DNA of 64,000 bases from Candidatus Oxydemutatoraceae bacterium (GCA_965220085.1 CBDCOZ010000003.1:1664001-1728000); one strand, 5' to 3'; shown: positions 10,966 through 55,460, numbered from the stretch's first letter. A program made the numbers and translations. The notes: a model not told the origin generated them from the letters alone.

Positions 10966-12607
10966 CTACCGCAACGGGCCTTCCAGGAAAAGGCGCAGGC
11001 GCAAGCGCAAGCGTTGCTCCAGATTTATCGTGATGGTGGCGGCATGGGCGCTGGTATTGCGGGTGATGGGTTGGCCAGCGTCATCAAGGTCGCCGCTCGG
11101 TTCATCGCCATCGTCGGTTACTTTGAAGGTGAATGCGGCATAGCCGCTCTGGACGCTCTGCCCGTCCGCCGGCCAGTAGGCGATGGCGCCGATGTTGGCG
11201 GCGGCCACGCGCTGACCGACAGTGGCGTCGGCGCCGCCTACCCGCAGGGTGCCGGCATCCGGCAGGCTGGCAATCTCCACGCTGGCCAAGTTGTCGCCGT
11301 CCTCATCATCAAAGGGAAAGTCTCTGATTGCGAACCTGAAAGGCCGGTTCATCGTGGCATCCGCCGACACATTTATCGTGCGGTCCCGGGGTATGGGCGC
11401 ATCGCTGGCGTTGTGCACCCGGGCGGCGGCGGAGCACAGCCCCGTCACAGTCTCCGGCATGGCGTGAAGATCTCTATAACTGACGCAGACGCGGATGTAC
11501 AGGCCGATATGCTCCAGCATGGGGGTGAATGAATCGCCAGTGGTACCGGGTATGGCGGTGAAAGTGCCGTTTATGGCGGCGGATGACCGCCATTCCCACT
11601 CAAGTGTGCGCAAGTCTATGCCATTGGGCTCCACTATGCCCTCTCTTCTGGCAAACAGTGCGGTATCTTCGGCGTAGGTCGGGGCTTCAACAGCGGTGGG
11701 GTTGCCGGGGTTGGTGACTATGGTGGGCCTGCCGCTGGTGGCAACCTGGGCTGTCGATACCAGACGGATAAAGATTTGGTTGGTGGTTCTGGAGGCCATG
11801 TTGCTGGTGCCATCGCTGCCATCATCGGTCACACCGAAAGCGATGATATCGTACGAGGCATTGGCATCATCAGGGTCGGTGGGTTGCTGGCCCGGCTCCG
11901 GGTAATAGGTCAGAGCGCCGGCATTCAGTTGGGCCACAGTTATGGGGTTTTCGGGGACGGCGGTCAGGGCCGTGCCATTCAGGGCCAGGGTGCCATTATT
12001 GGGCACTCGATTCAGGGTGACACTGGCCAGCATGTCGTTATCGGCATCCTCAAAAGTGAAGTCGGTTGACGGGAGCACATAGGGGTTCGCGGAAGTGGCG
12101 GTGGTCGCCACCGAAATGAAGTTGGCGGTGGGCATCGGCCGGTCATTGATGTTGGCCACGGCGGTGGCTATCTGGTTGCATCGCTGCTCGTCATTGCCGC
12201 CGCTGTCGGTGAACGATGCGCAGACCCGCAGAAACTTGCCCACCTCGTCATCGCCCGGAGTGAAGGCGGCCCTGTCCGCGCCGACGATGTCGGTATAGAT
12301 GCCGCCATTGCTATCGGCCGCACTCCACTGCCAGGCCAGGGTGCCGACCGTGGTGGTTGGCGTATTGTCCGGGTCTTCTATGCCGCCTTGGGATGCGGTG
12401 ATGGCGGAGTCTTCGGTGGGAGCGGCTATGCCGCTGGCGTAGGCGACCATCGGCATGCCGGTAGCATTGTCCTGTGCCTGTGCTTGAGTAGATACGATGA
12501 GGAAAGCGAGCAACAAGAGCGGGCAGAGACCGCACCCGCTCAGGTCAATTCGGCACGGGGGGGGGGGGGGGGGGGGGGGGCATCAGTATTAAAATTTGTT
12601 GTTTCAT
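10966..12607 (-). CDS. FLEGPLR-tail family member 1: secreted tandem Ig/cadherin-like protein; frameshifted at G24 tract (uninterrupted ORF 10966-12516)
   Basis: AGGA-preceded ATG at 12607 (MKQQILILM) is 1 nt out of frame; C23 gives an open read into LLLAFLIVSTQAQA-Q. Two WQW..I.GA...FTP..DVG..RVC domains and two DF.F.DAD.D.LASV domains; ends RLRLRLRLFLEGPLR. Confidence 0.8.
12557..12580. repeat. G24 homopolymer (poly-C on coding strand) in leader of member 1
   Basis: Counted directly. Confidence 0.9.
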
Positions 12608-13126
12608 ATCTATTATTCCTATGACAGTCTGTATATCACGAATGCAGTCGTGCGATGAGTTCTGCGCACTCTGCCACAAAATGCAAGTCATCTATCAGTT
12701 TCTGTATCTCCTGCTTCTAGCAAATTTAATTATACGTTATATGTCCACAAACTGTTTGCAGACTGTTTAATATTGCACTATACCACAAGTTCGGTCATTT
12801 GCAAATTGGATTGAAATCTAGGTTTTATCTAGGTTTGTGTCGCACTATACCACAAAGTGCGAATCATGCAAGCGCTTGTTTGATGCCATGACATAGCGGA
12901 CATCTGGGGCAGACATTGTGTGTCATTGGCGCTTGCACGGTATCCATGGCAATGCAATCTCAGGATGCGTTGCCTTAAAACCCATGCCGACGCAAGGGTT
13001 CTGGAGCCTGATTCGTTATCCATGGCAATGCGCGCGATGCGCTGCCCTGAAACCCTTGCCAAGACGGGGCTTGCGGTGTGCTATGCCGCCCCCCAGAATA
13101 CTCGCCTGCTCCGCAGATTACTCGCG
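12582..13126. repeat. Upstream block, copy 1 of 3 (also 15378-15853 and 20276-about 20567)
   Basis: Near-identical AT-richer sequence precedes members 1, 3 and 7; copy 1 has an extra internal duplication of about 72 bp. Confidence 0.9.
12777..12871 (-). promoter_or_regulatory. Two tandem sigma70-like promoters (TTGCAW-N16-TATAGT with extended -10 TG)
   Basis: Minus strand reads TTGCATgattcgcactttgTGgTATAGT (12871-12844) and TTGCAAatgaccgaacttgTGgTATAGT (12804-12777); same pair at 15573-15667 and 20472-20566. Confidence 0.55.
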
Positions 13127-13978
13127 CTATCGCAACGGGCCTTCCAGGAAAAGGCGCAACCGCAAGCGTATATCAGGCGGCAACTGTGTCACCTGATGAG
13201 CGTCTGTGCTACACAGCGGCCCTTCCGATGCGGGCATGGAAAACTGATCCTTGAAAGAAACACAGGCGCGGACGTACCTGCCCAGTTGTGCGGCAGTCGG
13301 TGCGAAATCTGAGGAATAAGTAGCGCCCGCTATGTCGCTGTAAGCACTGGGTGCGGGAACACCGCTGGCGGGGGCGTCGGCCTGTTGCCACTGCCAACTC
13401 AAGGTGCTGACATCAATGCCGTTGAGGTCCGTCACACCGGTGATGGAAGCGCTAATCCGGTGCGTGTCTGTGGCGGTGGCGATTGCGGGCGCGCCGCTGG
13501 CGGCCGTCTGCGCGAGGGCCCCAATCAGATTGATGGTCATGGTGGCCTTGCTATCGACACCCCCAGTCTGTATCGCAAAGGTAAAACTGTCGTAACCGTT
13601 GGCGACAGAGATGGCAGTGACCGGGGGGGTGTAGGAGACACCCTGGCTACTACTCGTTCCGGTGAGGTCAGAGGCGAGGTATATAAATGTCTGACCATCA
13701 CCGTCACCTGCGAGTGCCACCATGATATTGGTCCGGATATCTATCAGCCTGCCATTGGCGGGGTAGGAGAAGACCAGCACAGCGCCACTGGTAAGACCGA
13801 AATCTGCGGCGGTGAAGTAATATGTGCCGCCGCCAATCGGGACATCAACACTCTGGTCTGTCGCCTGGGCATAAACATGGGTTGCGCCCAATGCCAAGGG
13901 CAGAATCAGCAGAATAAGCAACCGACGGCTAAGCCGGGTTAGTGTTCGGGGGGCAGTATCAAAAATTTGGCAGTTCAT
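13127..13978 (-). CDS. FLEGPLR-tail family member 2 (283 aa): signal peptide, variable domain, Cys-pair Ig domain
   Basis: AGGAGA RBS before ATG 13978; LLILLILPLALGATHVYA-Q signal; ends DIRLRLRLFLEGPLR. Confidence 0.85.
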   Translation of the reverse strand: MNCQIFDTAPRTLTRLSRRLLILLILPLALGATHVYAQATDQSVDVPIGGGTYYFTAADFGLTSGAVLVFSYPANGRLIDIRTNIMVALAGDGDGQTFIYLASDLTGTSSSQGVSYTPPVTAISVANGYDSFTFAIQTGGVDSKATMTINLIGALAQTAASGAPAIATATDTHRISASITGVTDLNGIDVSTLSWQWQQADAPASGVPAPSAYSDIAGATYSSDFAPTAAQLGRYVRACVSFKDQFSMPASEGPLCSTDAHQVTQLPPDIRLRLRLFLEGPLR

Positions 13979-14085
13979 AGTATTTCTCCTGATGGTTTGG
14001 GTTTCGTGAATGCGGTTGTGCAATGAGTCGCACCATCTCTTGTGCGCCTCATAACACTCTCCTTTTCCGCCGTAGGTTACTTGCA

Positions 14086-15404
14086 TCATCGCAGGGGGCC
14101 CTCAAGGAAGAGACGCAACCGCAAGCGCAGATTTGAGATGCCGCTATCCGCGCCAGTCTCTATGCCAAAGGTCAGTGTGCCTGTATCGCCGTCTGCGTCG
14201 GTGGCGGTGAGGGTATAGGCGGTCTTGGCAACCGTAGCGGTGGGGGTGCCGCTTATGGTGCGGGTGGCTGCGGTGAAACTGAGGCCCGCGGGCAAGGCCG
14301 GGGTCAGGCTGTATGTGACAGCGCCATTGCCGCCGGTCGCCGCAGGCAGAATCAAGTCGGTGATGGCCTTGCCGGTCACCCAGACCTGATCCGCCACCGA
14401 TGTATTGTCGAAGAAGGGCACATTGGATACCAGTACGCCAGTGCTACACAGCTCTGAGGATGCCGGAGCGGAGAACTGGTCCATGAATGCGGCGCAAACC
14501 CGCAGGTACTTGCTCGCGTGTGCGGCAAGGGGTGTGAAGTTTGAGGAAATTGTGCCTCTGGCAACGGTTATATCGCTGTAGGCACTGATTGCATTGGCGC
14601 CAACGCCTATCACATCGGCCTGCTGCCACTTCCAGGTCAGGGTGGCGACATCAATGCCGTTGGGCTCCGTCACACCGGCGATGGATGCCGTAAGCAGCAC
14701 ACCGGTGTTATAGGCGGTGGCGCCCATGGCGGCCGCAACAGTGGGCGCGCCGCTGGCGGCCGTCTGCGTGGATGCTCCCACCAGATTGATGGTCACGGTG
14801 GCCGTGGTATGGTTGGCACCGACATGCAACTCAAAGATGAAGCTGTCATAACCGTTGGCGACAGAGATGGCAGCGGTCGGGGGCCTGTATTCGACGGTTC
14901 CGACTCCAGTGGAGAACTCAATCGGGAAATATGCATCTGTATTATCGTCATCAACACTTGAAACGCCCACGTCTCGCACAAGACTGGTATCAAATAACCT
15001 GCCATGAGTGGGTTGGGTTTGGAACATCAGTATTTGGGAGTCAAGACCGCCGAAATCTATTTTCCTGAGCACATATCCGTTGCTTCCAATAGTGACATCA
15101 ACACTGGTGTCCGAGGCTTGAGCGTTAGCCTGTGTCGCGCCCAATGCCAGACACAGGACCAACAGGCAACGCATGAGCGGATCCGACCACAGTCCGGCAG
15201 GCAGGCGGACCGCAACAGACCGCAACCACGACAACAGACCGCGCACAGCCGGGCGGCGCGACCGCTTTGCGGATGGCGGGTTGCTATGTGCGGGTGATAA
15301 AAAACGGGTGAGAAGGCGATACGGCGAAACGCCGGCAATCCCCTTACTTACAAAGCTGCGGGGGGGGGGGGGGGGGGTATCAGTATTAAAATTTGTTGTT
15401 TCAT
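14086..15404 (-). CDS. FLEGPLR-tail family member 3: variable domain, Cys-pair Ig, He_PIG-like Ig; frameshifted at G18 tract (in-frame alternative ATG 15174)
   Basis: AGGAGAG-preceded ATG 15404 needs C16 or C19; LPAGLSF.AATRTISGTPT putative-Ig motif; ends NLRLRLRLFLEGPLR. Confidence 0.8.
15360..15377. repeat. G18 homopolymer in leader of member 3
   Basis: Counted directly. Confidence 0.9.
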
Positions 15405-15853
15405 ATCTGTCTCTCCTGTGACAGTCTGTATATCGTGAATGCAGTCGTGCGATGAGTGCGGTGTGCTCTGCACAAAATGCAAGTCATCTATCAGTTTCTG
15501 TATCTCCTGCTTCTAGCAAATTTAATTATACGTTATATGTCCACAAACTGTTTGCAGACTGTTTAATATTGCACTATACCACAAGTTCGGTCATTTGCAA
15601 ATTGGATTGAAATCTAGGTTTTATCTAGGTTTGTGTCGCACTATACCACAAAGTGCGAATCATGCAAGCGCTTGTTTGATGCCATGACATAGCGGACATC
15701 TGGGGCAGACATTGTGTGTCATTGGCGCTTGCACGGTATCCATGGCAATGCAATCTCAGGATGCGTTGCCTTAAAACCCTTGCCAAGACGGGGCTTGCGG
15801 TGTGCTATGCCGGTCCCCAGAATACTCGCCTGCTCCGTCGCAGATTACTCGCG

Positions 15854-17005
15854 CTATCGCAACGGACCCTCAAGAAAGAGCCGCAGCCGCAAGCGCAGAT
15901 TTGAGATGCCGCGATCCGCGCCCGTCTCTATGCCAAAGGTCAGCGTGCTTGTATCGCCGTCTGCGTCGGTGGCGGTGAGAGCATAGGCGGTCTTGGCAAC
16001 CGTAGCGGTGGGGGTGCCGCTGATGGTGCGGGTGGCTGCGGTGAAACTGAGTCCCGCGGGCAGGGCCGGGGTCAGGCTGTACGTGACAGCGCCATTGCCG
16101 CCGGTCGCCGCAGGCAGAACCAGGTCGGTGATGGCCTTGCCGGTCGCCCAGACCTGATCCGCCACCGATGTATTGTCGAAGAAGGGCACATTGGATACCA
16201 GTACGCCAGCGCTACACAGCGGCCCTTCCGATGCGGGCGTGGAGAACTGGTCCATGAATGCGGCGCAAACCCGCAGGTACTTGCTCGCGTGTGCGGCAAG
16301 GGGTGTGAAGTTTGAGGAAATTGTGCCTGTGACAGTGGTTATATCGCTGTAGGCGCTGATTGCATTGGCGCCAATGCCTATAATATCGGCCTGCTGCCAC
16401 TTCCATGCCAGAGTGCCGACATTGATGCCGTTGGGCTCAGTCACACCTGTGATGGAGGCAACCAGCGGCACACCGGTGTTATAGGCGGTGGCGGTTGTGG
16501 CGGCCGCAACAGTGGGCGCGCCGGTAGCGGTCATCTGCGTGAGTGCCCCCACCATGTTGATGGTCACGGTGGCCGTGGTATGGTTGCCACCGACATGCAA
16601 CTCAAAGATGAAGCTGTCATAACCGCTGACGACAGAGATGGCAGTGGCCGGGGGCCTGTATTCGACACGATGGGTTCCGCCAGAGAAATCGATCGGGAAA
16701 TATCCATCCGCCTGATCGCCATAAACACTTGAAACCGCCACGTCTCGCATATCATTGGTATTATACAACCTGCCATGAGTGGGTTGGGTTTGGTATCTCA
16801 GTGTTTGGGAAACAAAACCGCCGATATCTGTTTTCTCGAGTGTATACCCACTGCTTCCAATAGCGACATCAACACTGGTGTCCGAGGCTTGAGCGTTGGC
16901 CTGTGTCGCGCCCAATGCCAAGGGCAGAATCAGCGACCAGCGGCTAAGCCGCGTCATCGTTGCCCGCCGGTGCCGGGGGGCGGTATCAGAAATTGGGTAG
17001 TTCAT
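15854..17005 (-). CDS. FLEGPLR-tail family member 4 (383 aa), close paralogue of member 3 with a different leader
   Basis: AGGAGA RBS before ATG 17005; signal ..LPLALGATQANA-Q; He_PIG-like domain; tail motif. Confidence 0.85.
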   Translation of the reverse strand: MNYPISDTAPRHRRATMTRLSRWSLILPLALGATQANAQASDTSVDVAIGSSGYTLEKTDIGGFVSQTLRYQTQPTHGRLYNTNDMRDVAVSSVYGDQADGYFPIDFSGGTHRVEYRPPATAISVVSGYDSFIFELHVGGNHTTATVTINMVGALTQMTATGAPTVAAATTATAYNTGVPLVASITGVTEPNGINVGTLAWKWQQADIIGIGANAISAYSDITTVTGTISSNFTPLAAHASKYLRVCAAFMDQFSTPASEGPLCSAGVLVSNVPFFDNTSVADQVWATGKAITDLVLPAATGGNGAVTYSLTPALPAGLSFTAATRTISGTPTATVAKTAYALTATDADGDTSTLTFGIETGADRGISNLRLRLRLFLEGPLR

Positions 17006-17112
17006 CGTATTTCTCCTTCTGGTTTGGGTTTCGTGAATGCGGTTGTGCAATGAGTCGCACCATCTCTTGTGCGCCTCATAACATTCTCCTTTTCCGCCGT
17101 AGGTTACTCGCA

Positions 17113-17979
17113 TCATCGCAACGGGCCCTCAAGAAAGAGGCGCAACCGCAAGCGTATATCAGGCGGCAACTCTGTCACCTGAGTGCCGGCGCTACACAGC
17201 GGCCCTTCCGGTTCCGGCGTGTCATGCTGATCCATAAAAGAAACACAGGCGCGCACATACCTGCCCAGTTGGGCGGCAGTCGGTGCGAAGAGGGAAGAAG
17301 TGGCATCCTCTATGTCAACAATGTAGTCGCTGGGTGCGGGAACACCGCTGGCGGGGGCGTCGGCCTGTTGCCACTGCCAGCTTAGGGTGCCGACATCAAT
17401 GCCGTTGAGGTCCGTCACACCGGTGATGGAAGCGCTGATCCGGTGCGTGTCTGTGGCGGTGGTGATTTTGGGCGCGCCGCTGGCGTCCGTCTGCGTGGAT
17501 GCGCCCACCAGATTGATGGTCATGGTGGCCCTGATATGGTTGCCGAAGGAACGTGTCTCAAAGATGAAGCTGTCGTAACCGTTGACGACAGAGACGGCAG
17601 CGGCCGGGGGCCTGTACTCCATAGTACCGGTTCCGCCGGAGCCGGTGAAATCGGCGCTCCAGAAATGTGCATCCCCGCCATCATCATCACCTAAAACGTC
17701 CACGTCTCGGTTAAGAGAGACATTAAACACCCTGCCATGAGTGGGTTGGGAGTAGAGATACAAAGTTCCATGGGTGGATCCAAAACCGCCGAAATCTGTA
17801 CGCTTAAATACATATGCGCCGCCAATCGGGACATTAACACTGCTGGCTTGAGCTTGAGCGTTGGCCTGTGTCGCGCCCAATGCCAAGGGCAGAATCAGCA
17901 GAATAAGCGACCGGCGGCTAAGCCGGGTCATCGTTGTCCGCCAGCACCGGGGGGCAGTATCAAAAATTTGGCAGTTCAT
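17113..17979 (-). CDS. FLEGPLR-tail family member 5 (288 aa)
   Basis: AGGAGA RBS before ATG 17979; signal peptide; variable plus Cys-pair Ig domain; tail motif. Confidence 0.85.
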   Translation of the reverse strand: MNCQIFDTAPRCWRTTMTRLSRRSLILLILPLALGATQANAQAQASSVNVPIGGAYVFKRTDFGGFGSTHGTLYLYSQPTHGRVFNVSLNRDVDVLGDDDGGDAHFWSADFTGSGGTGTMEYRPPAAAVSVVNGYDSFIFETRSFGNHIRATMTINLVGASTQTDASGAPKITTATDTHRISASITGVTDLNGIDVGTLSWQWQQADAPASGVPAPSDYIVDIEDATSSLFAPTAAQLGRYVRACVSFMDQHDTPEPEGPLCSAGTQVTELPPDIRLRLRLFLEGPLR

Positions 17980-19680
17980 AGTATTTCTCCTAATGGTTTG
18001 GGTTTCGTGAATGCGGTTGCAATGAGTCGCACCATAAACAATCCGCAAACAGTTGATGGAGCACAATACTTAATTGTTTGTGCCTCATTAAATGTTGCTT
18101 GTGTACATAACTCACAAAGCGCAAGTCATCCACAAGTATCTTTGTATCCTGTCTCATCCTCTTGTGCACCTCATAACTATCCTTCTCCGCAGCTACGCAC
18201 TACCGCAACGGGCCTTCAAGGAAAAGGCGCAGGCGCAGGCGTATATCAGGCGGTAGCTCTGTCACCCGAGTGCCGGCGCTACACAGCGGCCCTTCCGGTT
18301 CCGGCGTGTCATGCTGATCCATAAAAGAAACACAGGCGCGCACATACCTGCCCAGTTGGGCGGCAGTCGGTGCGAAGAGGGAAGAAGTGGCATCCTCTAT
18401 GTCAACAATGTAGTCGCTGGGTGCGGGAACACCGCTGGCGGGGGCGTCGGCCTGTTGCCACTGCCAGCTTAGGGTGCCGACATCAATGCCGTTGAGGTCC
18501 GTCACACCGGTGATGGAAGCGCTAATCCGGTGCGTGTCTGTGGCGGTGGTGATTTTGGGCGCGCCGGTAGCGGCCGTCTGCGTGGATGCTCCCACCAGGT
18601 TGATGGTCATGGTGGCCATCGTATCGACACCCCCAGTCAGTATCGAAAAGGTAAAACTGTCGTAACCGTTGGCGACAGAGATGGCAGTGGCCGGGGGTGT
18701 GTAGGAGACACCCTGGCTGTTAGCCGTTCCGGTGAGGTCAAAAGCGAAGTATGCAAACGTCTGACCATCACCGTCACCTGCGAGTGCCACCATGATATTG
18801 TTCCGGATATCTATCAGCCTGCCATTGGCGGGGTGGGAGAAGAACCGCACAGCGCCACTGGTAAGACCGAAATCTGCGGCAGTAAAGTAATATGTGCTGC
18901 CGCCAATCGGGACATTAACACTCTGGTCCGTCGCCTGGGCATAAACATAGGTTGCGCCCAATGCCAAGGGCAGAATCAGCAGAATAAGCGACCGGCGGCT
19001 AAGCCGGGTCATCGTTGTCCGCCAGCACCGGGGGGCAGTATCAAAAATTTGGCAGTTCATAGTATTTCTCCTAATGGTTTGGGTTTCGTGAATGCGGTTG
19101 CAATGAGTCGCACCATAAACAATCCGCAAACAGCTGATGGAGCACAATACTTAATTGTTTGTGCCTCATTAAATGTTGCTTGTGTACATAACTCACAAAG
19201 CGCAAGTCATCCACAAGTATCTTTGTATCCTGTCTCATCCTCTTGTGCACCTCATAACTATCCTTCTCCGCAGCTACGCACTACCGCAACGGGCCTTCAA
19301 GGAAAAGGCGCAGGCGCAGGCGTATATCAGGCGGTAGCTCTGTCACCCGAGTGCCGGCGCTACACAGCGGCCCTTCCGGTTCCGGCGTGTCATGCTGATC
19401 CATAAAAGAAACACAGGCGCGCACATACCTGCCCAGTTGGGCGGCAGTCGGTGCGAAGAGGGAAGAAGTGGCATCCTCTATGTCAACAATGTAGGCGATG
19501 GGTGCGGGAACACCGCTGGCGGGGGCGTCGGCCTGTTGCCACTGCCAGATTAGGGTACCGACATCAATGCCGTTGAGGTCCGTCACACCGGTGATGGAAG
19601 CGCTAATCCGGTGCGTGTCTGTGGCGGTGGTGATTTTGGGCGCGCCGGTAGCGGCCGTCTGCGTGGATGCCCCAACCATG
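17875..19680. repeat. Near-identical direct repeat of about 720 bp, period 1081 (about 17875-18600 and 18956-19680)
   Basis: Starts 17979/19060 and stops 18200/19281 are both 1081 apart, with matching intervening text. Confidence 0.9.
18200..19060 (-). CDS. FLEGPLR-tail family member 6 (286 aa)
   Basis: AGGAGA RBS before ATG 19060; variable domain of member-2 type; 3' half nearly identical to members 5 and 7. Confidence 0.85.
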   Translation of the reverse strand: MNCQIFDTAPRCWRTTMTRLSRRSLILLILPLALGATYVYAQATDQSVNVPIGGSTYYFTAADFGLTSGAVRFFSHPANGRLIDIRNNIMVALAGDGDGQTFAYFAFDLTGTANSQGVSYTPPATAISVANGYDSFTFSILTGGVDTMATMTINLVGASTQTAATGAPKITTATDTHRISASITGVTDLNGIDVGTLSWQWQQADAPASGVPAPSDYIVDIEDATSSLFAPTAAQLGRYVRACVSFMDQHDTPEPEGPLCSAGTRVTELPPDIRLRLRLFLEGPLR

Positions 19681-20302
19681 TTGATGGTCATGGTGGCCGT
19701 GGTCTCGACGCCACCTCTAAGTATCACGAAGATGAAGCTGTCATAACCGTTGACGTCAGAGATGGCAGCGGTCGGGGGCCTGTATTCGATATCACCGGTT
19801 CCGCCAGAACCAGAGAAATCGCCCCAGAAATATGTATCCAAAAAGCCATCATCAACACCTGAAACGGCCAAGTTTTCGTTAAGAGAGACATCAAACACCC
19901 TGCCATGAGTGGGTTGGGTGTAGAGAAACAAACTTCTGCCGGATCCAAAACCGCCGAAATCCGTACGCTTGAATACATATGCGCCGCCAATCGGGACATT
20001 AACACTGCTGGCTTGAGCCTGAGCGTTGGCCTGGGTTGCGCCCAATGCCAGGCACAGGGCCAGCAGGCAACGCATGAGCGGACCCGACCACAGTCCGGCG
20101 GGCAGGCGGACCGCAACAGACCGCAGCCACAACAACAGACCGCGCACAGCCGGGCGGCGCGACCGCTTTGCGGATGGCGGGTTGCGATGTGCGGGTGATA
20201 AAAAGCGGGTGAGAAGGCGATACGGCGATACGCCGGCAATCCCCTTACTTACAAGGCTGCGGGGGGGGGGGGGGGTATCAGTATTAAAATTTGTTGTTTC
20301 AT
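19281..20302 (-). CDS. FLEGPLR-tail family member 7; frameshifted at G15 tract (in-frame alternative ATG 20075)
   Basis: AGGAGAG-preceded ATG 20302 needs C16 or C13; variable domain of member-5 type; tail motif. Confidence 0.8.
20261..20275. repeat. G15 homopolymer in leader of member 7
   Basis: Counted directly. Confidence 0.9.
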
Positions 20303-20642
20303 ATCTATCTCTCCTATGACAGTCTGTATATCGTGAATGCAGTCGTGCGATGAGTTCTGCGCACTCTGCCACAAAATGCAAGTCATCTATCAGTTTCTGT
20401 ATCTCCTGCTTCTAGCAAATTTAATTATACGTTATATGTCCACAAACTGTTTGCAGACTGTTTAATATTGCACTATACCACAAGTTCGGTCATTTGCAAA
20501 TTGGATTGAAATCTAGGTTTTATCTAGGTTTGTGTCGCACTATACCACAAAGTGCGAATCATGCAAGTGCCTTTGTATCCTGCCTCTCTCCCCTTGTGTG
20601 CGCCCCCAGAATACTCGCCTGCTCCGCCGCCGGGTATTCGCA

Positions 20643-20735
20643 TTATCGCAGGGGACCTTCAAGGAAGAGGCGCAGGCGCAAGCGTATATCAGGCGGCAAC
20701 TCTGCCACCAGACTGCCTGTGCTACACAGCGGCCT
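20643..20735 (-). pseudogene. Orphan 3' fragment of an FLEGPLR-tail gene (PLCSTGSLVAELPPDIRLRLRLFLEGPLR)
   Basis: Last 30 or so codons match the ends of members 2/5/6/7; upstream sequence is unrelated and lacks a signal peptide. Confidence 0.8.
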
Positions 20736-20938
20736 TTCGGGGCGGGCACCTCCGGCGGGGATAGCGCGGAAATAGGCGGTATTGCTACCTCCGCCGCTTT
20801 TGCCGTGTGAAAATAGCGATTCGGCATCGCCGTTTTGCGACACCTTCCGTTGGCCGGGTAGCGTCGGGTATGTCGGTCCCGACTCTGAGTACGGGTATAT
20901 AATGGCGATAACATTTTCCACTACGGGACATCTCAATC

Positions 20939-35405: not shown

Positions 35406-36524
35406 CTACCGCAACGGGCCTTCAAGGAAGAGCCGCAACCGCAAGCGCACGGGGCGCATCGGGTCTATGGCGAAGGTCAGCGTATCGGTCTCTCCGTCCA
35501 CATCGGTGGCGGCATAGGCGTATCGGATTATGGCGGATGCCGTCGTAGGTGTGCCGCTGATGGTGCGGGTGTCGGCATCAAAGGCGAGGCCGTCGGGCAG
35601 GGCCGGGCTTATGCTGTAGGCGGTGTTATTGCCGCCGGCGGCTGCGGGCAATACCAGAGGTGTGGTCGTGCCGGGCGGCCAAATCCGGGTGCCCACCGTT
35701 GCATCGCCAAAGTCGGGCGCGCTGTTTGCCACCAGATTGATGGTTATCGTGGCGGCAGGGCCAACGCCATAAGGCCCATCCGCTCCTGCCAGGAAATCAA
35801 ATCTGGCGTAATCACTGCCGACAGTGGCATCGGCGGGCGGCGCGTATGTGACTCCCTCGCTTGAAATGAATTCGTGTCCGAACACAGCGATAGGCAACGA
35901 GGAGTAAGTATCTCCGCTGATTCTAAGAATGCCATCGGCGGGAAGACTTTCAAGGAAAAGGCTGACTTGTCCATAATCAGCGCCCTCTTCGTCCTCATGG
36001 CGAAAGTCGCTGAGGCGAAATCGCGATGTGCGGCCAACCGGGAAGTCGACGCTGCTGGGCAGGGCATTGATATCATTGAGGTTGACCACCGCCGCAGCGG
36101 AAGTCCAGCAACGGGTCTCGCGGTTGCCGGCATCATCGTCAAAGGTAGCACATACACGCAGAAACTTGCCCACATGCTCCTGCAGGGGCGTGAAAGTCGC
36201 GGCGGTGGCGCTTGCTATGTCCGCGAAGGAACCGCCGGCTGTTTCGCCCTGTTGCCACTGCCAGGCGGGGCTGAAGTTGGCTATGCCATCGGTGGTGTCG
36301 GCTATGCTGCCTCGGGCCGCGGTCAAGTGGATGTCCTCATTGGGGCCGCCGCTCACGGCGCTGCCGTCCGCCGTGACCGTGACCGCCGGTGTGCCGGTGG
36401 CGTTCTGCGCCTGCGTCGGTGCGCAGACAACAAACAGCGCCGACAGAATCAGCGCCCGGAGGCTAAGCCGGGTGAGCGCTGTCCGCCAGCGCCGAGGGGC
36501 GGTATTAGAAATTTGTCGCTTCAT
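35406..36524 (-). CDS. FLEGPLR-tail family member 8 (372 aa): Cys-pair Ig, variable domain, He_PIG-like domain
   Basis: GGGAGA RBS before ATG 36524; signal ..LILSALFVVCAPTQA-Q; ends PVRLRLRLFLEGPLR. Confidence 0.85.
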   Translation of the reverse strand: MKRQISNTAPRRWRTALTRLSLRALILSALFVVCAPTQAQNATGTPAVTVTADGSAVSGGPNEDIHLTAARGSIADTTDGIANFSPAWQWQQGETAGGSFADIASATAATFTPLQEHVGKFLRVCATFDDDAGNRETRCWTSAAAVVNLNDINALPSSVDFPVGRTSRFRLSDFRHEDEEGADYGQVSLFLESLPADGILRISGDTYSSLPIAVFGHEFISSEGVTYAPPADATVGSDYARFDFLAGADGPYGVGPAATITINLVANSAPDFGDATVGTRIWPPGTTTPLVLPAAAGGNNTAYSISPALPDGLAFDADTRTISGTPTTASAIIRYAYAATDVDGETDTLTFAIDPMRPVRLRLRLFLEGPLR

Positions 36525-36815: not shown

Positions 36816-37622
36816 CTACCGCAACGGGCCTTCAAGGAAGAGCCGCAACCGCAAACGCACGGGGCGCATCGGGTCTATGCCGAAGGTCAGCGTATCGGTC
36901 TCCCCATCCGCATCGGTGGCGGTGAGGGTGTGTCGGATCATGGCGGATGCCGTCGTGGGCGCGCCGCTGATGGTGCGGGTGTCGGCATCAAAGGCGAGGC
37001 CGTCGGGCAGATCCGGGGTGATTGCGTAGGTGATGGCGCCATTGCCGCCGGTGGTTGCGGGCAATACCAGAGGTACGGTCGTGCCGGGCGGCCAAATCCG
37101 GGTGCCCACCATTGCATCGCCAAAGTCGGGCGCGCTATTGGCCACCAAGTTGATGGTCATGGTGGCAGTAGTACCTAATCTTGTGCCCTGAGCCTCCGCA
37201 CCGAAGACAAATCTGGCGTAATCACTGCCGACAGTGGCATCGGCGGGCGGTGTGTATGTTATTCCCTCGCTTGAAGCGAATTCGACCCTGAACAGAGAGA
37301 CGAATGTGTTTTGGCCTCCTTGGGCAATAGCTCCCTTGATTCTAAGAGTGCCATCGGCAGGAAGATTTGGAAGGATAAAGTCGGGTTGCGGATAATCAGA
37401 GCCATCTTCGGCTTCATGACGAAAGTCGCTGAGACGGAAACGCGATGTGCGACCAACCGCGAAGTCGACACTGCTGGGCAGGCTGTTAATCACAGTGACG
37501 TTCTGCGCCTGCCCCGGTTCGCAGACAACAAACAGGACCGGCAGAGCCAGTGTCCAGAGGCTAAGCCGGGTGAGCGCTGTCCGCAAGCGCCGGGGGGTAG
37601 TATTAGAAATTTGTCGTTTCAT
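36816..37622 (-). CDS. FLEGPLR-tail family member 9 (268 aa): variable domain plus He_PIG-like domain
   Basis: AGGAGA RBS before ATG 37622; signal peptide; LPDGLAFDADTRTISG; tail motif. Confidence 0.85.
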   Translation of the reverse strand: MKRQISNTTPRRLRTALTRLSLWTLALPVLFVVCEPGQAQNVTVINSLPSSVDFAVGRTSRFRLSDFRHEAEDGSDYPQPDFILPNLPADGTLRIKGAIAQGGQNTFVSLFRVEFASSEGITYTPPADATVGSDYARFVFGAEAQGTRLGTTATMTINLVANSAPDFGDAMVGTRIWPPGTTVPLVLPATTGGNGAITYAITPDLPDGLAFDADTRTISGAPTTASAMIRHTLTATDADGETDTLTFGIDPMRPVRLRLRLFLEGPLR

Positions 37623-37798: not shown

Positions 37799-38750
37799 TT
37801 ACCGCAACGGGCCTTCAAGGAAGAGCCGCAACCGCAAACGCACGGGGCGCATCGGGTCTATGCCGAAGGTCAGCGTATCGGTCTCCCTATCCGCATCGGT
37901 GGCGGTGAGGGTGTATTCGGCGGCAGCGGATTCCGCCATGGGTGTGCCGCTGATGGTGCGGGTGTCGGCATCAAAGGTCAGGCCGTCGGGCAGAGCCGGG
38001 GCGACTGTATAGGTGATGGGGCCATTGCCGCCGGTGACTGCGGGCAATATCAGAGGCGCGGTCGTGCCGGGCGGCCAAATACGGGTGCCCGCCGTTGCAT
38101 CGCCAAAATCGGGCGCGCTGTTTGCCACCAGATTGACGGTCACGGTGCCCGTGGTATGGCTGCCACCGACATGTAACTCAAAGATGAAGCTGTCATAACC
38201 GTTGACGACAGAGATGGCAGTAATCGGGGGCCTGTATTCGACGGGTCCGACTCCGGCGGAGAAGTCACTCGCGACATATGTGCTTAGCTGACCGCCACCT
38301 CCGCTTGAAAGCGACACGTCTCGCTGAGGTATGGTATCAAACAACCTGCCATGAGCGGGTCGGGTTTGGAACAACAGTGTTTGGGAGACAAAACCGCCGA
38401 TATCTGTTTTCCTGAGCGCATATCCGCTGCTTCCAATAGCGACATCAATGCTGGTGTCCGAGGCTTGAGCGTTGGCCTGTGTCGCGCCCAATGCCAAGCA
38501 CAGGGCCGGCAGGCAGCGCATGAGCGAACCCGACCGCAACCCGGCGACCGGGCGCACCGCAACAGACCGCAGCCACAGCAACAAACCGCGCACAACCGGG
38601 CGGCGCGACCGCTTTGCGGATGGCGGGTTGCTATGCGCGGGTGATAAAGAACGGGTGAAAAGGCGATACGGCGAAACGCCGGCAATCCCCTTACTTACAA
38701 AGCTGCGGGGGGGGGGGGGGGGGGGTCAGTATTAAATTTTTTCTGTTCAT
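37799..38750 (-). CDS. FLEGPLR-tail family member 10; frameshifted at G19 tract (in-frame alternative ATG 38521)
   Basis: ATG 38750 (MNRKNLILT) needs C18 or C21; leader and variable domain like members 3/4, He_PIG-like domain like members 8/9. Confidence 0.8.
38707..38725. repeat. G19 homopolymer in leader of member 10
   Basis: Counted directly. Confidence 0.9.
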
Positions 38751-44288: not shown

Positions 44289-44310
44289 TTTTCTCCCCCT
44301 GTTTGTAAAT

Positions 44311-45534: not shown

Positions 45535-45553
45535 GGTGTAACCTCCTCGCAGA

Positions 45554-46024: not shown

Positions 46025-46043
46025 ACTTTTTAACTCCCAAGTA

Positions 46044-46068
46044 ATAATTGACCATTTTACACAAGATT
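46044..46068. promoter_or_regulatory. Probable type-1 IscR operator
   Basis: ATAATTGACCATTTTACACAAGATT, 20 bp before the iscR ATG, resembles the ATAxxTGAC-core type-1 IscR site; IscR autoregulation is established. Confidence 0.6.
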
Positions 46069-46312
46069 TAGATATTGTCACTCCCGAGTGCCGAAACCGT
46101 TGTAATAGCAGGGATATTCATTGCTTTGCGGCATCCGCAAAGCGGCGTAAAAAGCATCTCCGACAGGCGGACATGCCCCGATACCGCCCGCACAACGAAC
46201 CCCGCCGAGCATAAACCGGCGCATGCGATAGGCCGATGCGTCACATGCTGTATCGGTAACAAACTGTTGTTATAATACAGCCCTATGTTCCAAGCTTTAG
46301 TCACCGCAACAA

Positions 46313-47290: not shown

Positions 47291-47319
47291 CCCCGCAGAC
47301 AACCGAAAAGCGACATCTC

Positions 47320-49112: not shown

Positions 49113-49161
49113 CCGACCGAGGTTCTCCGCCCGCAACGCATCAACTCAGGAAAACGCTGCC

Positions 49162-49962: not shown

Positions 49963-49992
49963 TGACTGCTTCCGTCATCAAAACTTTGTAAC

Positions 49993-51159
49993 ATGGCAAA
50001 CATCATGGCAAACATCATGGCAACAGCGAAACAAAACACCGTCATGCGCGACTGCATCCAAAAGGTCGCGACCGGCCCCGAATACAGCAAAGACCTCAGT
50101 TTTGACGAAGCCCGCGCAGCGATGAGAGAAATCCTAAAGCCCGGCAGCGACCCGGTACAAGCCGCCGTCTTGCTCATCGGCTTGAGAATGAAACGCGAAA
50201 CACAGCCGGAAAACAGAGGCGCCCTGAAAGCAATCTGCGAAGTCATCGACTGCCTGACCGCCGATGCCGACCAAGTGATAGACATCGCCGACCCCTATGA
50301 CGGCTTTGCGCGCGGCTTGCCGGTCTCCCCCTTCCTGCCGGCGCTGCTTGCGAGCTTGGGTCTCGCAGCGTTCGCCCACGGGGTGGACAGCGTTGGCCCG
50401 AAATACGGGGCGACGCACCCCAAAGTTCTGCGCGCAGCCGGCGTCGCTGTCGACCTGTCGCCGCAACAGGCGTTGGCACAGTTGAATGACATTGGCTGGA
50501 CCTACATTGACCAGAGCGCGTTCTGCCCGCCGCTGTACGCGCTCATCTCATTGCGCGCGCGCATCGTCAAACGCCCCCTTTTAACCACGCTTGAAGTCCT
50601 GACCGGCCCGATCAAAGGCCGCCGCAGCACGCGCCTAATCACCGGTTATGTCCACAAAGCCTATCCGCCAATCTACCTTGATCTGGCAAAATGCGCCGGC
50701 TTCAAATCCGCCGCCGTAATACGCGGGTGCGAAGGAGGAATCATTCCTTCGCTACAACAGCGATCAAGACTGTTTGAATACACCGCCGAGAGCGCCGTAA
50801 GCGATGACGATATCGAGGAACAGATGCAAAAACGGGAGTTGGACCCGACCGCGCTTGCTATCCGGCAAGACAGCAGAGCGGTGCCGATTCCGGACACGCT
50901 GACCCCGCGACAGGCCGTCGGCGACAAGATAGAATCCAAGATAGATGCCGACAGCCTCGCACAGTGCGCGGCGCAAGCGGGGCTCGAAGCATTGCAAGGC
51001 AAAGCCGGCCCCGCGCGCGATAGTCTGCTCTACGCCGCCGCCATCGTGCTGACGCATATCGGCCGTTGCGACTCCCTGCCGGAAGCGTATCGGGAGGCCG
51101 AAAAGAAGGTAGACAAAGGGGAAGCCTTGGCCTGCTTTCAAAAAGCCCTCGCATCCTGA
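49993..51159 (+). CDS. Anthranilate phosphoribosyltransferase-like (TrpD/YbiB fold) protein; start among 49993/50005/50017
   Basis: IQKVATGPE.SKDL, LRMKRET..E, GPKYGAT, TGYVHK.YP; canonical TrpD GTGGD motif absent. Confidence 0.7.
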   Translation: MANIMANIMATAKQNTVMRDCIQKVATGPEYSKDLSFDEARAAMREILKPGSDPVQAAVLLIGLRMKRETQPENRGALKAICEVIDCLTADADQVIDIADPYDGFARGLPVSPFLPALLASLGLAAFAHGVDSVGPKYGATHPKVLRAAGVAVDLSPQQALAQLNDIGWTYIDQSAFCPPLYALISLRARIVKRPLLTTLEVLTGPIKGRRSTRLITGYVHKAYPPIYLDLAKCAGFKSAAVIRGCEGGIIPSLQQRSRLFEYTAESAVSDDDIEEQMQKRELDPTALAIRQDSRAVPIPDTLTPRQAVGDKIESKIDADSLAQCAAQAGLEALQGKAGPARDSLLYAAAIVLTHIGRCDSLPEAYREAEKKVDKGEALACFQKALAS

Positions 51160-51201
51160 TATAATGAGACTTATGCAAACAACCAACTTACAAACTTAAT
51201 A

Positions 51202-51402
51202 ATGGACGATTTATACAGAAACACTACGACCGCGATGGAAGAAGCCGGAGCGGACTCGGATTACATAATCGGATGGCAAGGAGGCTACCTCGGTCATCCC
51301 GCCCGTGAAAAACAGCGCGCATCGGAAGCCTATCTTGCGGGATATGCCGACGGACAGGAAAAGAACACTGCCAACTACGAGAAATGGGCTGACAACAAAT
51401 GA
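51202..51402 (+). CDS. Alvin_2107-like small sulfur-globule oxidation protein, copy 1
   Basis: ME..G.D.DYI.GWQGGYL..P.RE.QR..EAY.AGY.DG pattern, recognised from memory of that family. Confidence 0.7.
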   Translation: MDDLYRNTTTAMEEAGADSDYIIGWQGGYLGHPAREKQRASEAYLAGYADGQEKNTANYEKWADNK

Positions 51403-51620
51403 ACCCGCCCGCTTCAAACAGACCTCCGGATTGCCATTGCGATGACAACAGCGCGAGTACCGCGCGGCGGAGAAAGAAAGTGTCAGAGGGAACGCAAGAG
51501 GTGCGACAGGATACGAAGTCACTTGCAAGTGACGCGCACTGTGTGGCAGGCTACGGCACTAAGAGTAGCAACACGCATTGCATAAGTATTCGCTAAACAC
51601 AAACCATGAGGAGAGATACC

Positions 51621-53547
51621 ATGAAACGAGAGTCTTTTAATACCCCCCCCCCCCCCCCCCCTGAACGGGCGGGCAACACTAACCCGGTTTAGCCTCCGGT
51701 CGCTCATTCTGCCGACCCTGTTTGTTATCTGCGCTCAGGCACAGAGCGCGCCTGTGGCTCAGGACAAAACCATCGATGTTCAGGTGGGCGATACGTTTTA
51801 CACCTTCACGGCGGATGACTTCCCGATAACCGATGCAGACGGTGATGATGGTCTGGCAGTTGGCAGTCGCATATACGTGGAGAGCTTGCCTGTTTCCGGC
51901 AGTAACGCACGAGGTAACTTGGTCACTGCGCCTCTTGGCGCCCGCGTAGTTTTAAGCACGGGAGATTTCGCCACCGAATCCCGCCTCCGGGCAGGCGAGT
52001 TCAGGTACGAGTTGTCCCCCGGTGCCACGAATGTTGTCAGCGGTTATGCCACTTTCACCTATAGCTACTCGGCCGATGAGGGCGCTACCCGTAGCAACAC
52101 CGCCACCATCACCATCAACCTGGCGAGGATGCAGACGCAGATGCCGGCAACCGGCGCGCCCACTGTGACGGCGCCGATGGGCAACACAGTCTGGGACGAG
52201 GATGCGCTCCACACCGCCACTGCTCGCGGTATCAGAGACCCCAATGGCTTTAGCGTCACAGAAGTCACCTGGCAGTGGCAACAGGCCGTCGTCGCCGACG
52301 GGGCAACCCCGGCGGACAGCGACTACGCCAATATTGCCGCGGACACCGCCACCTTTCTCTCCACCACATTCACACCGCTACAGGCACATGTGGGGAACTA
52401 CATACGGGTGTGCGCATCCTTCCCGGACAGCATCGTACCGGCCGTCCGCGAGCGACGTTGCACCGCAGGCAATGTCATCGCCAATGTCAACGATGCCCCG
52501 GTTGCGCAGAACAACACCATCTTTGTGCCGGTAGGCAGCAGTTATGCCTTCTCGGCGGGCGACTTCCCGTTCACAGATGAAGACGACGATGCGTTGGACG
52601 GAGTTGTCCTACAGACCATACCCGCCAACGGCGCCCTGAGCAGGGGTAGCACGGCTTTGACTGGCAGTCAGGTTCCCAGAACTGTAGCGCTGGATGATAT
52701 AGGCGCCATCAGCTACACAGCGACCGGTCAGAACCCGAGCGCAGGCTACGCCACTTTCACATTCAATGTGGTTGACGCCGGCAACGATGGTGTCAGCAAC
52801 AAGAACAGCACCAACACCGCCGCCATGACCATAGACCTGGTGCCGTCCGCGCCATCGGCGGCAACCGGCGCACCGACGGTGACGGCGGCATCGGGCGCCG
52901 CCTACAACGAAGGCGCGGAACTGACCGCAGCTATTGGCGACGTAGCCGATGCCAACGGCATCCCTGCCCACGGTCAGATGACGTGGCAATGGCAACAGTC
53001 CGCCACCACGGCCACCGACACATACGAAAACATAGCCGGAGCCACCGGCGCCGCCTTCGTGCCCGGGCGGGAACATGTCGGCCAATACATCCGCGCCTGC
53101 CTCGGTTTCACCGACGGCATAGGCGCCGCCGAGATGCGCTGCTCCGCCGGCAACATCATTGTCAGAGTCAATTCGGTGAGTGTGCCGATTACCGCCGACG
53201 CAAACGCGCCCTATACTTTCAAGCTATCCGACTTTATATTTCCGGGCGATGACATTGACAATCTGGTCAGCATCACCATAGTCACCACGATAGCATCGGG
53301 CAAGGGCATATTTCGCAACGACGGCGCCGCAGTAACCGCCAACACCACAGTGACCGCTGCCGGCCTGCGCAACGGCGACCTCACTTTCTATCCCCCGGCC
53401 AACACCGCCGCCGCCGATAGCTTTGCCAGTTTCACCTATACCGTGAACTATGGAGGCGCCAACACCGCCACCCGCACGATGAACATCAATCTGGCGGAGC
53501 GCCTGCGCTTGCGGCTGCGCCTGTTCCTCGAAGGGCCGTTGCGATAG
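51621..53547 (+). CDS. FLEGPLR-tail family member 11, five-domain Ig/cadherin-like; frameshifted at C19 tract (uninterrupted ORF 51754-53547)
   Basis: GAGGAG RBS before ATG 51621; C18 restores MKRESFNT-Pn-LNGRATLTRFSLRSLILPTLFVICAQAQS signal; C19 stops at TAG; tail motif. Confidence 0.82.
51643..51661 (+). repeat. C19 homopolymer in leader of member 11
   Basis: Counted directly. Confidence 0.9.
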
Positions 53548-53714
53548 CGCGAGCGCCGCCTCGCAGGATTTGCGCCTAGCACGCTCCCTCGCGGGAAGCG
53601 TATCGGGAGGCCGAAAAGCAGATAGACAAAGGGGAAGCCCTGGCCTGCTTTCAAAAAGCCCTCGCATCCTGATATAATGAGACTTATGCAAACAACCAAC
53701 TTACAAACTTAATA

Positions 53715-53915
53715 ATGGACGATTTATACAGAAACACTACGACCGCGATGGAAGAAGCCGGAGCGGACTCGGATTACATAATCGGATGGCAAGGAGGTTA
53801 CCTCGGTCATCCCGCCCGTGAAAAACAGCGCGCATCGGAAGCCTATCTTGCGGGATATGCCGACGGACAGGAAAAGAACACTGCCAACTACGAGAAATGG
53901 GCTGACAACAAATGA
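53715..53915 (+). CDS. Alvin_2107-like protein, copy 2 (identical protein)
   Basis: Same 66-aa translation as 51202-51402; one synonymous GGC/GGT difference seen. Confidence 0.7.
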   Translation: MDDLYRNTTTAMEEAGADSDYIIGWQGGYLGHPAREKQRASEAYLAGYADGQEKNTANYEKWADNK

Positions 53916-54133
53916 ACCCGCCCGCTTCAAACAGACCTCCGGATTGCCATTGCGATGACAACAGCGCGAGTACCGCGCGGCGGAGAAAGAAAGTGTCAGA
54001 GGGAACGCAAGAGGTGCGACAGGATACGAAGTCACTTGCAAGTGACGCGCACTGTGTGGCAGGCTACGGCACTAAGAGTAGCAACACGCATTGCATAAAC
54101 ATTCGCTAAACACGAACCATGAGGAGAGAGACT

Positions 54134-55460
54134 ATGAAACGAGAGCCTTTTAATACCCCCCCCCCCCCGGCGCAGGAGCCTGCACCACTTATGGTCGCTG
54201 GCACTGCTCGCCCTTTTCATCTTATCCACCCAGGCCCAACCGCACAGCAACCACGCTCCCGACAGCCCGGTTGTTCTGGGTCTGATTAAGCCGAACGCCA
54301 GCAATAAAAATGTATGGGTGTTGCCCACTGCCACCGCCGACAGCCCGTACACTTTCAAGACGAACGACTTTCCTTTTTTTGACCGTGACGGCGATACCCT
54401 GACCAGGGTCACCATAAAGAGCCTGCCATCCGCCGGAACCATGCTGGTGGACGGTTCCGCCGCCACTCAGGGGCAGAATGTGGCAACCGCCGACATCGGC
54501 ACCATCAAATACTATCCGGCACCGGGACAGTCCGCACAGGCCAACTACGCCAGCTTCACATTCAGCGTCACGGCTGGCGGTCAGGAATCCGGCAATGGCA
54601 CAATCACCATCAATCTTATCGCAACCGAGCAAGTCCCAGCCACCGGCTCGCTCGCACTATTTCTACTGCACGGCAGCGATACAAGCGCATTAGATGAGGA
54701 TACGCCATTAGAGGAGGATATACCATTAGGCATATCAGGTTTTTTCAGCATTGTCGACCTCAACACCATACCTAGCGGCGCACTGACAAGCCTCAAATTT
54801 AAATGGCAACAATCCGCCACCCGGGGCGGCCAATTCACAGACATCACTGATACCAGTCTCGGAAACCCCAATTTCACCCCTCTGCAAATCCATGTGGGCA
54901 CATACATACGCGGCTGTGTCGTCTTTCTGGACGGACATGCCACCCCCAACCTTGAGACGGTGTGCTCCGCAGCTGGTCAGGTAACGAATAGAGGCGACCA
55001 GCCCGTGGGCGGCCCCAGCACTGTTAAGGTGCCAACTAATGCCATACCCACTAAGCCGCACCGCTTTGCGCGGACGGACTTTCCCTTTTCCGATGAGGAT
55101 GGCGACACCATCAATGGCATTCGCATAACCGCCCCGCCCACCAGAGGCACCCTGGTGGTGCGGGCGGGCGATTCCAGCACCGCCATAGCCATAGGCGCCG
55201 AGCTGACCCTGGCCCAGATGAATGCCCTGGCATACTATCCGGAACCCAATGCCCCCGCTGGTGCGGGCTATGCGACATTCACATACAGAGTGCGGGATAC
55301 TGGCACTGTAAGCACCCAGGTCTTAAGATGCATAGGGACTGATTGCAGTCAATATGCTGGCAGCACCAACGAGGCCGACACCGATTCCACCCTCACCATA
55401 GACCTGATAAACACAATCCGCCTGCGGTTGCGCGTTTTCCTTGAGGGGCCGTTGCGGTAG
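54134..55460 (+). CDS. FLEGPLR-tail family member 12; frameshifted at C13 tract (uninterrupted ORF 54318-55460)
   Basis: GAGGAG RBS before ATG 54134; C12 restores ..RRRSLHHLWSLALLALFILSTQA-Q signal; ends IRLRLRVFLEGPLR. Confidence 0.82.
54156..54168 (+). repeat. C13 homopolymer in leader of member 12
   Basis: Counted directly. Confidence 0.9.

Follow-up and report, generated by a model that had tools for sequence, protein, structure and literature searches.

What do long runs of cytosine do a few codons into genes that they throw out of frame? The question is posed by a 64,000-nucleotide (nt) stretch of DNA from a Candidatus Oxydemutatoraceae bacterium (GCA_965220085.1 CBDCOZ010000003.1:1664001-1728000; called the window here, with positions counted from its first letter), in which six poly-C tracts each separate an ATG from a long open reading frame (ORF) for a putative secreted protein. 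The tracts are probably members of a set of about 81 homopolymer contingency switches distributed over the genome, at which slipped-strand mispairing would turn members of one gene family on and off (phase variation). A preliminary description of the window had proposed ON/OFF variation of this kind. Re-measurement returns the six tract lengths that it gave and the same distances, 22-27 nt, from the ATG, and an independent frame count is identical to its own: four tracts (12557, 38707, 51643 and 54156) must lose a nucleotide, and two (15360 and 20261) must gain one, to join the ATG to the ORF.

12557-12580, minus strand (poly-G on the plus strand): poly-C tract of 24 nt; ATG at 12607, 27 nt 5'; one C too many for the ORF 10966-12555
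15360-15377, minus strand: poly-C tract of 18 nt; ATG at 15404 with AGGAG, 27 nt 5'; one C too few
20261-20275, minus strand: poly-C tract of 15 nt; ATG at 20302 with AGGAG, 27 nt 5'; one C too few
38707-38725, minus strand: poly-C tract of 19 nt; ATG at 38750 with a weak GAG only, 25 nt 5'; one C too many
51643-51661, plus strand: poly-C tract of 19 nt; ATG at 51621 with AGGAG, 22 nt 5'; one C too many
54156-54168, plus strand: poly-C tract of 13 nt; ATG at 54134 with AGGAG, 22 nt 5'; one C too many

These are the only homopolymers of at least 8 nt in the window, and all are C on the coding strand; the C10 pattern has 54 overlapping matches, against 0.12 expected from shuffles. A Shine-Dalgarno (SD) motif, AGGA or AGGAG, precedes the ATG at five of the six, as had been claimed, the exception being the 38707 locus with its GAG. 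At all six, the frame of the ATG runs into a stop after a few codons, and a different frame holds the long ORF (301-627 codons). Frame-corrected products read M(K/N)xx..., followed by 4-8 prolines, a basic stretch, a hydrophobic core and an AQA-type site. The tracts had been assigned to the n-region of the signal peptide. The order, polyproline and then signal peptide, holds, but at three loci (15360, 20261 and 38707) the prolines are set apart from the hydrophobic core by 63 residues in open frame. This spacer (xVSKGIAGVSPYRLLTRFLSP...; 15168-15357, 20069-20258 and 38515-38704, minus strand) recurs at about a dozen other loci and has no Pfam match.

The rest of the genome (three contigs, 2.49 Mb, 56% G+C, 99% completeness) contains many more such tracts. 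Its C/G runs of 10-28 nt number 86, and A/T runs never exceed 9. All but five of the 86 lie at the 5' end of members of one family of 219 ORFs (median 417 codons, stop to stop) that share a C-terminal tag, [FL]LEG[PS]L[RK]-stop. The 81 family tracts consist of 11-28 C (median 19 nt), always on the sense strand, and begin 17-148 nt 3' of the ATG, most commonly at 25 nt (18 loci), with several longer leader classes. Three of the other five runs precede family-like ORFs that lack the tag (contig C3: 125814, 834349 and 1140873), one precedes an ORF of at least 3000 codons, and one is an unrelated G10. Among 105 tract-less members, the C run ahead of the hydrophobic core is of 3 or fewer in 51, of 4 in 13, of 5 in 13, of 6 in 10, of 7 in two and of 9, the maximum, in two (no core was found in 14). 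C-run length across the family is thus bimodal, the tract peak lying at 17-23 nt. This bears on the proposal that the out-of-frame members are pseudogenes of an expanding and collapsing family and their tracts mutational debris. Loss of the tag at the three C3 loci and the presence of 33 family fragments of fewer than 150 codons would suit such decay; a bimodal length distribution, and tracts that are confined to one homologous position as sense-strand C instead of being scattered, would not. Short C runs of another kind occur at C2:218570-222861, where 64 runs of exactly C7 recur with a 66-nt period in a CRISPR-like array of about 65 repeats (the repeat containing CTTCCCCCCCAATCAAGCC).

The frame of the upstream ATG can be scored unambiguously at 80 of the 81 loci (uniquely at 74, by the SD motif at 6). 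The tract is in frame at 19, has one C too many at 38 and one too few at 23. The share in frame, 24%, is statistically compatible with one third (binomial p=0.075), and with 61 of 80 loci OFF genome-wide it is unremarkable that all six tracts of the window should be out of frame, an outcome for which a probability of about 0.09 had been calculated. The in-frame share is also independent of tract length (3/16 at 10-15 nt, 6/28 at 16-19, 7/25 at 20-23 and 3/11 at 24-30), which rules out miscalled long runs as the general cause of OFF states. An assembly artifact, in which tracts of fixed, in-frame length would appear frameshifted through homopolymer miscalls in long reads, is indeed highly improbable. 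Sequencing is error-prone at long homopolymers, the excess of +1 states could reflect a systematic bias, and the sole well-covering data set is probably the source of the assembly, so that it provides no independent check. Against this, the OFF share is as high in short tracts (13 of 16 at 10-15 nt) as in long ones (8 of 11 at 24-30 nt), -1 and +1 states are both present, tracts of at least 14 nt are found in 25 other genomes of the order, in different assemblies, and the wrong frames carry a signature that lies outside the tracts altogether.

That signature is prompt termination. Stops follow the tract after a median of 5 codons, and within 10 codons in 85% of cases, in both wrong frames; at off-frame control positions elsewhere in the same genes the median is 21 codons, with 29% within 10 (Mann-Whitney p ~4e-34, a value overstated since the paralogues are related). 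An OFF state enforced in this way is what a switch would have. A leaky tract would instead act as a dimmer: RNA polymerase slippage, tRNA-Pro +1 frameshifting on CCC-C, or both, would produce graded expression and make the DNA frame matter less. Runs of 11-28 C are far longer than an RNA-DNA hybrid. EF-P is present, and the commonest state, one C too many (38/80), is just the one that a +1 ribosomal shift would rescue, CCC-C being described as a classic slippery site for such shifts (PMC7577736, PMC12340085). The median of 5 codons to a stop in either wrong frame nevertheless fits real termination when OFF, and 23 of the 80 loci are in a state beyond rescue by a +1 shift. Transcriptional slippage, moreover, is documented mainly at A/T runs. 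A general dimmer is, on this evidence, unlikely.

Could translation begin beyond the tract? In 62 of the 81 genes no in-frame ATG lies between tract and hydrophobic core, so that in most genes export would require read-through of the tract; such an ATG with an SD-like 4-nt motif occurs in 6 only. Tract-less paralogues start at the homologous ATG and read straight through from it. It is accordingly very unlikely that the ATG and polyproline constitute a short upstream ORF, with the real start downstream and the tract tuning expression irrespective of frame (for example, through EF-P-dependent stalling). Consecutive prolines do stall ribosomes, and 19 of the 81 genes, the three window genes with the 63-residue spacer among them, have an in-frame ATG in the required interval; yet the spacer is open in the frame of the main ORF at every locus that has it. 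A structured-RNA reading of the spacer 3' of 15360, 20261 and 38707 was tried and dropped: its fold is not unusual (z = -1.06), and the window has no Rfam match.

The sequences 3' of the tracts do not look like those of abandoned genes. Every one of the 81 tract genes keeps its ORF (161-979 codons) from tract to tag without a second lesion, and in 297 paralogue pairs with both members out of frame the ratio of nonsynonymous to synonymous substitution (dN/dS) has a median of 0.5, with every value below 1. The OFF genes are, by these signatures, maintained and not dead. Decay of the family, for which 61 out-of-frame loci in 80 also speak, can be set down as very improbable. Tract length, on the other hand, appears to evolve faster than its flanks: of the eight paralogue pairs with 80% identity or more in their 40-nt flanks, six differ in it, by 1-10 nt, and the mean difference is 4.0 nt in these eight close pairs, compared with 4.6 in all pairs.

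What is proposed, then, is that replication slippage would frequently add or remove one or a few bases of the run. With the tract in frame with the upstream ATG, leader, polyproline, signal peptide and protein would be made as one chain; in the other two length classes the ribosome would meet a stop a few codons past the tract, and no exported protein would result. Each cell would display a random subset of the family. The mature proteins should be unaffected, because the prolines sit in the part cut off by signal peptidase. The indirect predictions of phase variation are borne out wherever they could be tested (81 homologous tracts, near-random frames, selected ORFs, prompt stops, few alternative starts, divergent lengths in close paralogues, similar tracts in relatives), and in silico the tracts have two of the properties that define contingency loci: a repeat of hypermutable length inside a reading frame, and a position where a change of one nucleotide in either direction would truncate the product. 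Thus the earlier proposal of ON/OFF variation is strengthened on its indirect side; the switching itself, that is, hypermutability and reversibility, is something that we infer from the observed anatomy, frame statistics, signatures of selection and phyletic spread, as are export and polarity. Loss of mismatch repair as a cause was rejected, MutS and MutL being intact; EF-P is intact as well, so that defective repair and failure to translate polyproline can both be set aside.

Several observations count against this interpretation. The three frame states depart from equal shares (chi-square p=0.023), loci with one C too many being overrepresented, an imbalance not expected of simple, unbiased slippage; it may come from a bias of the assembly or of mutation, or from tolerance of a state that a +1 shift on CCC-C could rescue. 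The paralogues are not independent of one another, and p-values are overstated to that extent. An ATG directly before the core at 15360, 20261 and 38707, with no SD motif, could permit expression independent of the tract. Two of the eight closest paralogue pairs are equal in tract length (22 and 22), and intact MutS and MutL leave no repair defect to raise slippage. Finally, in the run that is the likely source of the assembly (contigs; 0.97 of words), the tracts at 51643 and 54156 are spanned by single gap-free contigs. The only indel in that run is at 38704, 3 nt outside the C run, where contigs of paralogues pile up. A second contig run (0.13 of words) consists of short pieces with uninterpretable poly-C joints only, and a raw Hi-C run (about 1 in 100 reads sampled) has depth only on G/C runs, from poly-G/C loose-end artefacts, and zero elsewhere. 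No RNA run was found among those that match the window. A metagenome scan for TTTAATA followed by C12 returned more than 117 stretches; of 80 loci fetched, none matches the genome by blastn and none has the tag.

Tract genes tend to stand first in their arrays. In the window, the ending ...RLRL(F/V)FLEGPLR-stop is shared by 13 ORFs, of which six are tract genes, six are tract-less genes and one is a 97-codon remnant (T, below, is a tract-bearing and o a tract-less family gene).

10966..12607, minus strand: T gene; leader MKQQILILM, polyproline, signal-peptide-like CRIDLSGCGLCPLLLLAFLIVSTQAQAQ and a 529-codon ORF ending RLRLRLFLEGPLR; no Pfam family at E<=0.1
13127..13978, minus strand: o gene; C6 at offset 25 from the ATG, in frame, AGGAG
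14086..15404, minus strand: T gene; 423-codon ORF with a He_PIG immunoglobulin (Ig) domain; internal ATG (MRCLLVLCLALGATQANA) without SD-like motif
15854..17005, minus strand: o gene; C6 at offset 25, in frame; three beta-sandwich domains and a low-confidence C-terminal tag in the AlphaFold2 model
17113..17979, minus strand: o gene; C6, in frame
18200..19060, minus strand: o gene; C6, in frame
19281..20302, minus strand: T gene; 325-codon ORF; first intact gene of the array running from 20302 down to 10966
20643..20936, minus strand: 97-codon remnant, C-terminal tag kept
35406..36524, minus strand: o gene; C4, in frame
36816..37622, minus strand: o gene; C6, in frame
37799..38750, minus strand: T gene; 301-codon ORF with a He_PIG domain; heads the array T-o-o
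51621..53547, plus strand: T gene; 627-codon ORF; no start codon between tract and signal peptide
54134..55460, plus strand: T gene; 429-codon ORF with a Big_9 Ig domain

In transcription order the arrays are T-o-o-o, T-o, T (20302 to 10966), T-o-o (38750 to 35406) and T, T (51621-55460). The preliminary description had the first intact gene of each array as tract-bearing, and every sub-array of the window is in fact headed by a tract gene. It also had the other six members in frame with C4-C6, and at offset 25 from an AGGAG-preceded ATG they have C6, C6, C6, C6, C4 and C6, all in frame. Genome-wide, a tract gene comes first in 19 of 23 same-strand mixed arrays, compared with 8.8 expected (0 of 10,000 permutations reached 19); of the tract-less genes, 56 follow a tract gene, 5 precede one, and 44 belong to arrays that contain none. 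Promoter-like sites have a matching distribution in the first array of the window:

20472..20499, minus strand: promoter-like site TTGCAA-16-TATAGT with TG, about 170 nt 5' of the T-gene ATG
15573-15600 and 12777-12804, minus strand: equivalent promoter-like sites, about 170 nt 5' of the other two T genes of the first array

No such site is reported before the tract-less genes of that array, and a related 11-mer occurs in the 260 nt ahead of 27 of the 81 tract genes and of 2 of the 105 tract-less genes. The upstream regions at 12700-12900, 15500-15700 and 20400-20600 (minus strand) each contain two tandem promoter-like units (TTGCA-N-TGTGGTATAGTGC) 5' of the tract gene, beside a third, degenerate unit (TGTGGCAGAGTGC) that is also conserved 5' of the tracts at 38707, 51643 and 54156. 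A sigma-54 reading of the conserved upstream motif TGTGGCAG was discarded, the spacing being inconsistent between loci as judged by eye.

The position of tract genes at the head of same-strand arrays, together with the presence of a Rho gene, makes polarity control of whole arrays plausible: as a second-order effect, an OFF tract may lower expression of, or silence, the tract-less genes behind it through Rho-dependent polarity. The 64 ON/OFF combinations that had been counted for the window accordingly need amendment; they hold for the six tract genes as units, yet OFF tracts may extend their effect to tract-less neighbors. The sole rho gene is at C1:145298-145519, on the 216-kb contig C1, so that C1 cannot be a dispensable plasmid but must belong to the chromosome or be an essential replicon.

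What the family encodes can be described in outline. Pfam finds three of the six tract genes of the window above gathering score, with He_PIG (PF05345; 46.1 and 42.9 bits) and Big_9 (PF17963; 30.1 bits); one of the other three is below the cut-off and two have no match. A search of NCBIfam gives nothing above cut-off. The family profile matches cadherin-like modules of the SraP adhesin (4m03, E=8.5e-10; 4m02, E=3.2e-06), and AlphaFold2, run on one tract-less member with 38 paralogues, returns an all-beta model of three sandwich-like domains (predicted local distance difference test score, pLDDT, 85.7) in which the tag tail is of low confidence. Protein Atlas neighbors are exclusively Ig/cadherin-like clusters (at most 0.90), which serve as a lead only. 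In a search of 5.8 billion proteins the full-length relatives come almost only from the organism's own contigs; one outside protein matches 81% of the query at 46% identity. By simple pattern rules, Sec signal-peptide features are present in nearly all tract genes (core in 80/81, a basic residue before it in 78/81, AxA after it in 74/81). The products are, by these sequence features, predicted to be adhesin-type proteins with Ig/cadherin-like modules, secreted through Sec.

The C-terminal tag consists of about 13 residues in which R and L alternate ahead of FLEGPLR-stop (at 10966-11007 in the window, for example). No sorting-tag model in NCBIfam or Pfam (PEP-CTERM, GlyGly-CTERM, type IX secretion system (T9SS) C-terminal domain (CTD) and others) matches it at E<=0.1; it is too short, at about 13 residues, to be a helix anchor, and AlphaFold2 models it as disordered. 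The tag qualifies as a candidate signal, not described before, for sorting or anchoring. One tag-bearing ORF has 15,193 codons, and giant tag-bearing ORFs (about 18-46 kb, stop to stop) that lack a tract are located at C3:1323205-1488230 and C3:1770458-1838191.

A more far-reaching version of the phase-variation model would have some 81 independent poly-C switches, each at the head of a gene or an array, control as many as about 140 of the 219 tag-sharing, surface-located Ig/cadherin-like proteins, a system on the scale of antigenic variation, with each tract specifying three levels of expression. An in-frame tract would give full expression, one C too many a low level by slippage of tRNA-Pro in the +1 direction on CCC-C, and one C too few none; the number of prolines could add a volume control that depends on EF-P. 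We hold this version to be tentative, and rather less probable than its negation.

Slippery tracts extend to related bacteria. The nearest named genomes, as judged by PNPase, are metagenome-assembled genomes (MAGs) labelled Candidatus Oxydemutator (70% identity) and Candidatus Porisulfidus (68%), which we take to be sponge-associated Gammaproteobacteria. Runs of at least 14 nt occur in 26 of 53 genomes of the order: 77 in the present one, 45 in the next (G022) and at most 14 in each of the others. There are none in the 17 genomes, of about 1 Mb, that make up one family. Of 30 tracts sampled in G022, 14 are sense-strand poly-G directly before a HSPRFLTVLAGLTAV-type signal peptide in ORFs of about 500 codons or more, and two more are poly-C before other signal peptides; in another genome (G001), 4 of 12 tracts precede signal peptides. 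G022 belongs to another family of the order, and its loci L093-L115 encode a different secreted family with poly-G (polyglycine) in the equivalent position ahead of the hydrophobic segment, a design either convergent or inherited. The DNA motif of the tag is much more restricted, with 214 matches here, 16 in G011 and one or two each in G002, G015 and G017, of the same neighboring genus; none was found in 26 other relatives or in 300 genomes sampled across the class. In G011, which has no run of at least 14 nt, the tag reads ...(I/L)RVRVKVFLEGPLR and ends larger proteins. The tag being narrow in distribution and the tracts wide, the slippery-tract habit is order-wide and its union with the tag family lineage-specific. 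In G016, several tracts are found at contig ends or no more than about 100 nt from them; since short-read MAGs break at tracts, assemblies of that type probably underestimate how widespread the trait is.

Repeat slippage as a means of phase variation belongs to the textbook repertoire of host-restricted pathogens. A literature search, with supplements outside its scope, returned no account of phase variation mediated by repeats for sponge symbionts or the present lineage. The mechanism is known; what is new is the scale and the host, and the long tracts and their place at the head of arrays are notable as well. About a tenth of a 2.5-Mb genome is given over to one secreted family, and a slippery tract on 81 of its members would provide an enormous repertoire of surface states, with a bearing on escape of sponge symbionts from phagocytosis by the host and from phage predation, and on persistence of strains within a host. 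Standard pipelines will annotate the tract genes as pseudogenes or truncated ORFs. Should the version with about 81 switches and three levels be true, this would be the largest homopolymer phasome known and the first in a sponge symbiont lineage, with related genera bearing poly-G (Gly) at the same position.

Among known systems, fim of Bordetella is switched by a promoter poly-C. The opc gene of Neisseria likewise has its poly-C tract in the promoter (PMC3960869). In both, as is proposed here, the length of a poly-C run controls a surface protein, but theirs is control of transcription through promoter spacing; the tracts described here follow SD and ATG and are flanked by off-frame stops, which indicates translational control. 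A closer parallel is provided by the opa genes of Neisseria, whose repeat is located in the region coding for the leader peptide. Opa can be thought of as the same arrangement on a smaller scale: a multigene family of surface proteins in which each copy has its own repeat in the signal-peptide region and switches frame independently. The opa repeat is a genic pentamer (CTCTT/CTTCT, up to 12 copies; PMC5953494) and not a homopolymer; the Opa proteins are beta-barrels of the outer membrane, unrelated to Ig/cadherin-like modules; there are about a dozen copies at most, compared with 81 tract-bearing genes of 219; and the host bacterium is a human pathogen, not a sponge associate. In pilC of Neisseria the tract also lies in the signal-peptide region. 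It is a polyC tract within the reading frame that makes the gene phase-variable (PMC5953494), a homopolymer in 5' coding sequence giving translational ON/OFF control, as is proposed here; unlike the tracts of the present family, those of pilC (9-20 nt) belong to one or two genes, not to a large paralogous family, and do not head arrays. The phasomes of Campylobacter jejuni and Neisseria, finally, resemble this one in comprising many poly-G/C contingency loci per small genome, enriched in genes for surface structures. For Neisseria, PMC5953494 gives a mean of 15.4-19.4 poly-G tracts per genome (at least 9 nt, the PhasomeIt cut-off for poly-G being 9) and, for all repeat types, a maximum of 54 phase-variable loci in gonococcal and 47 in meningococcal genomes, and of 36-82 in N. 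lactamica. The present genome has 86 C/G runs of at least 10 nt in 2.49 Mb, 81 of them in a single family and with a median of 19 nt, a set on the scale of, or above, those figures for the Neisseria phasome.

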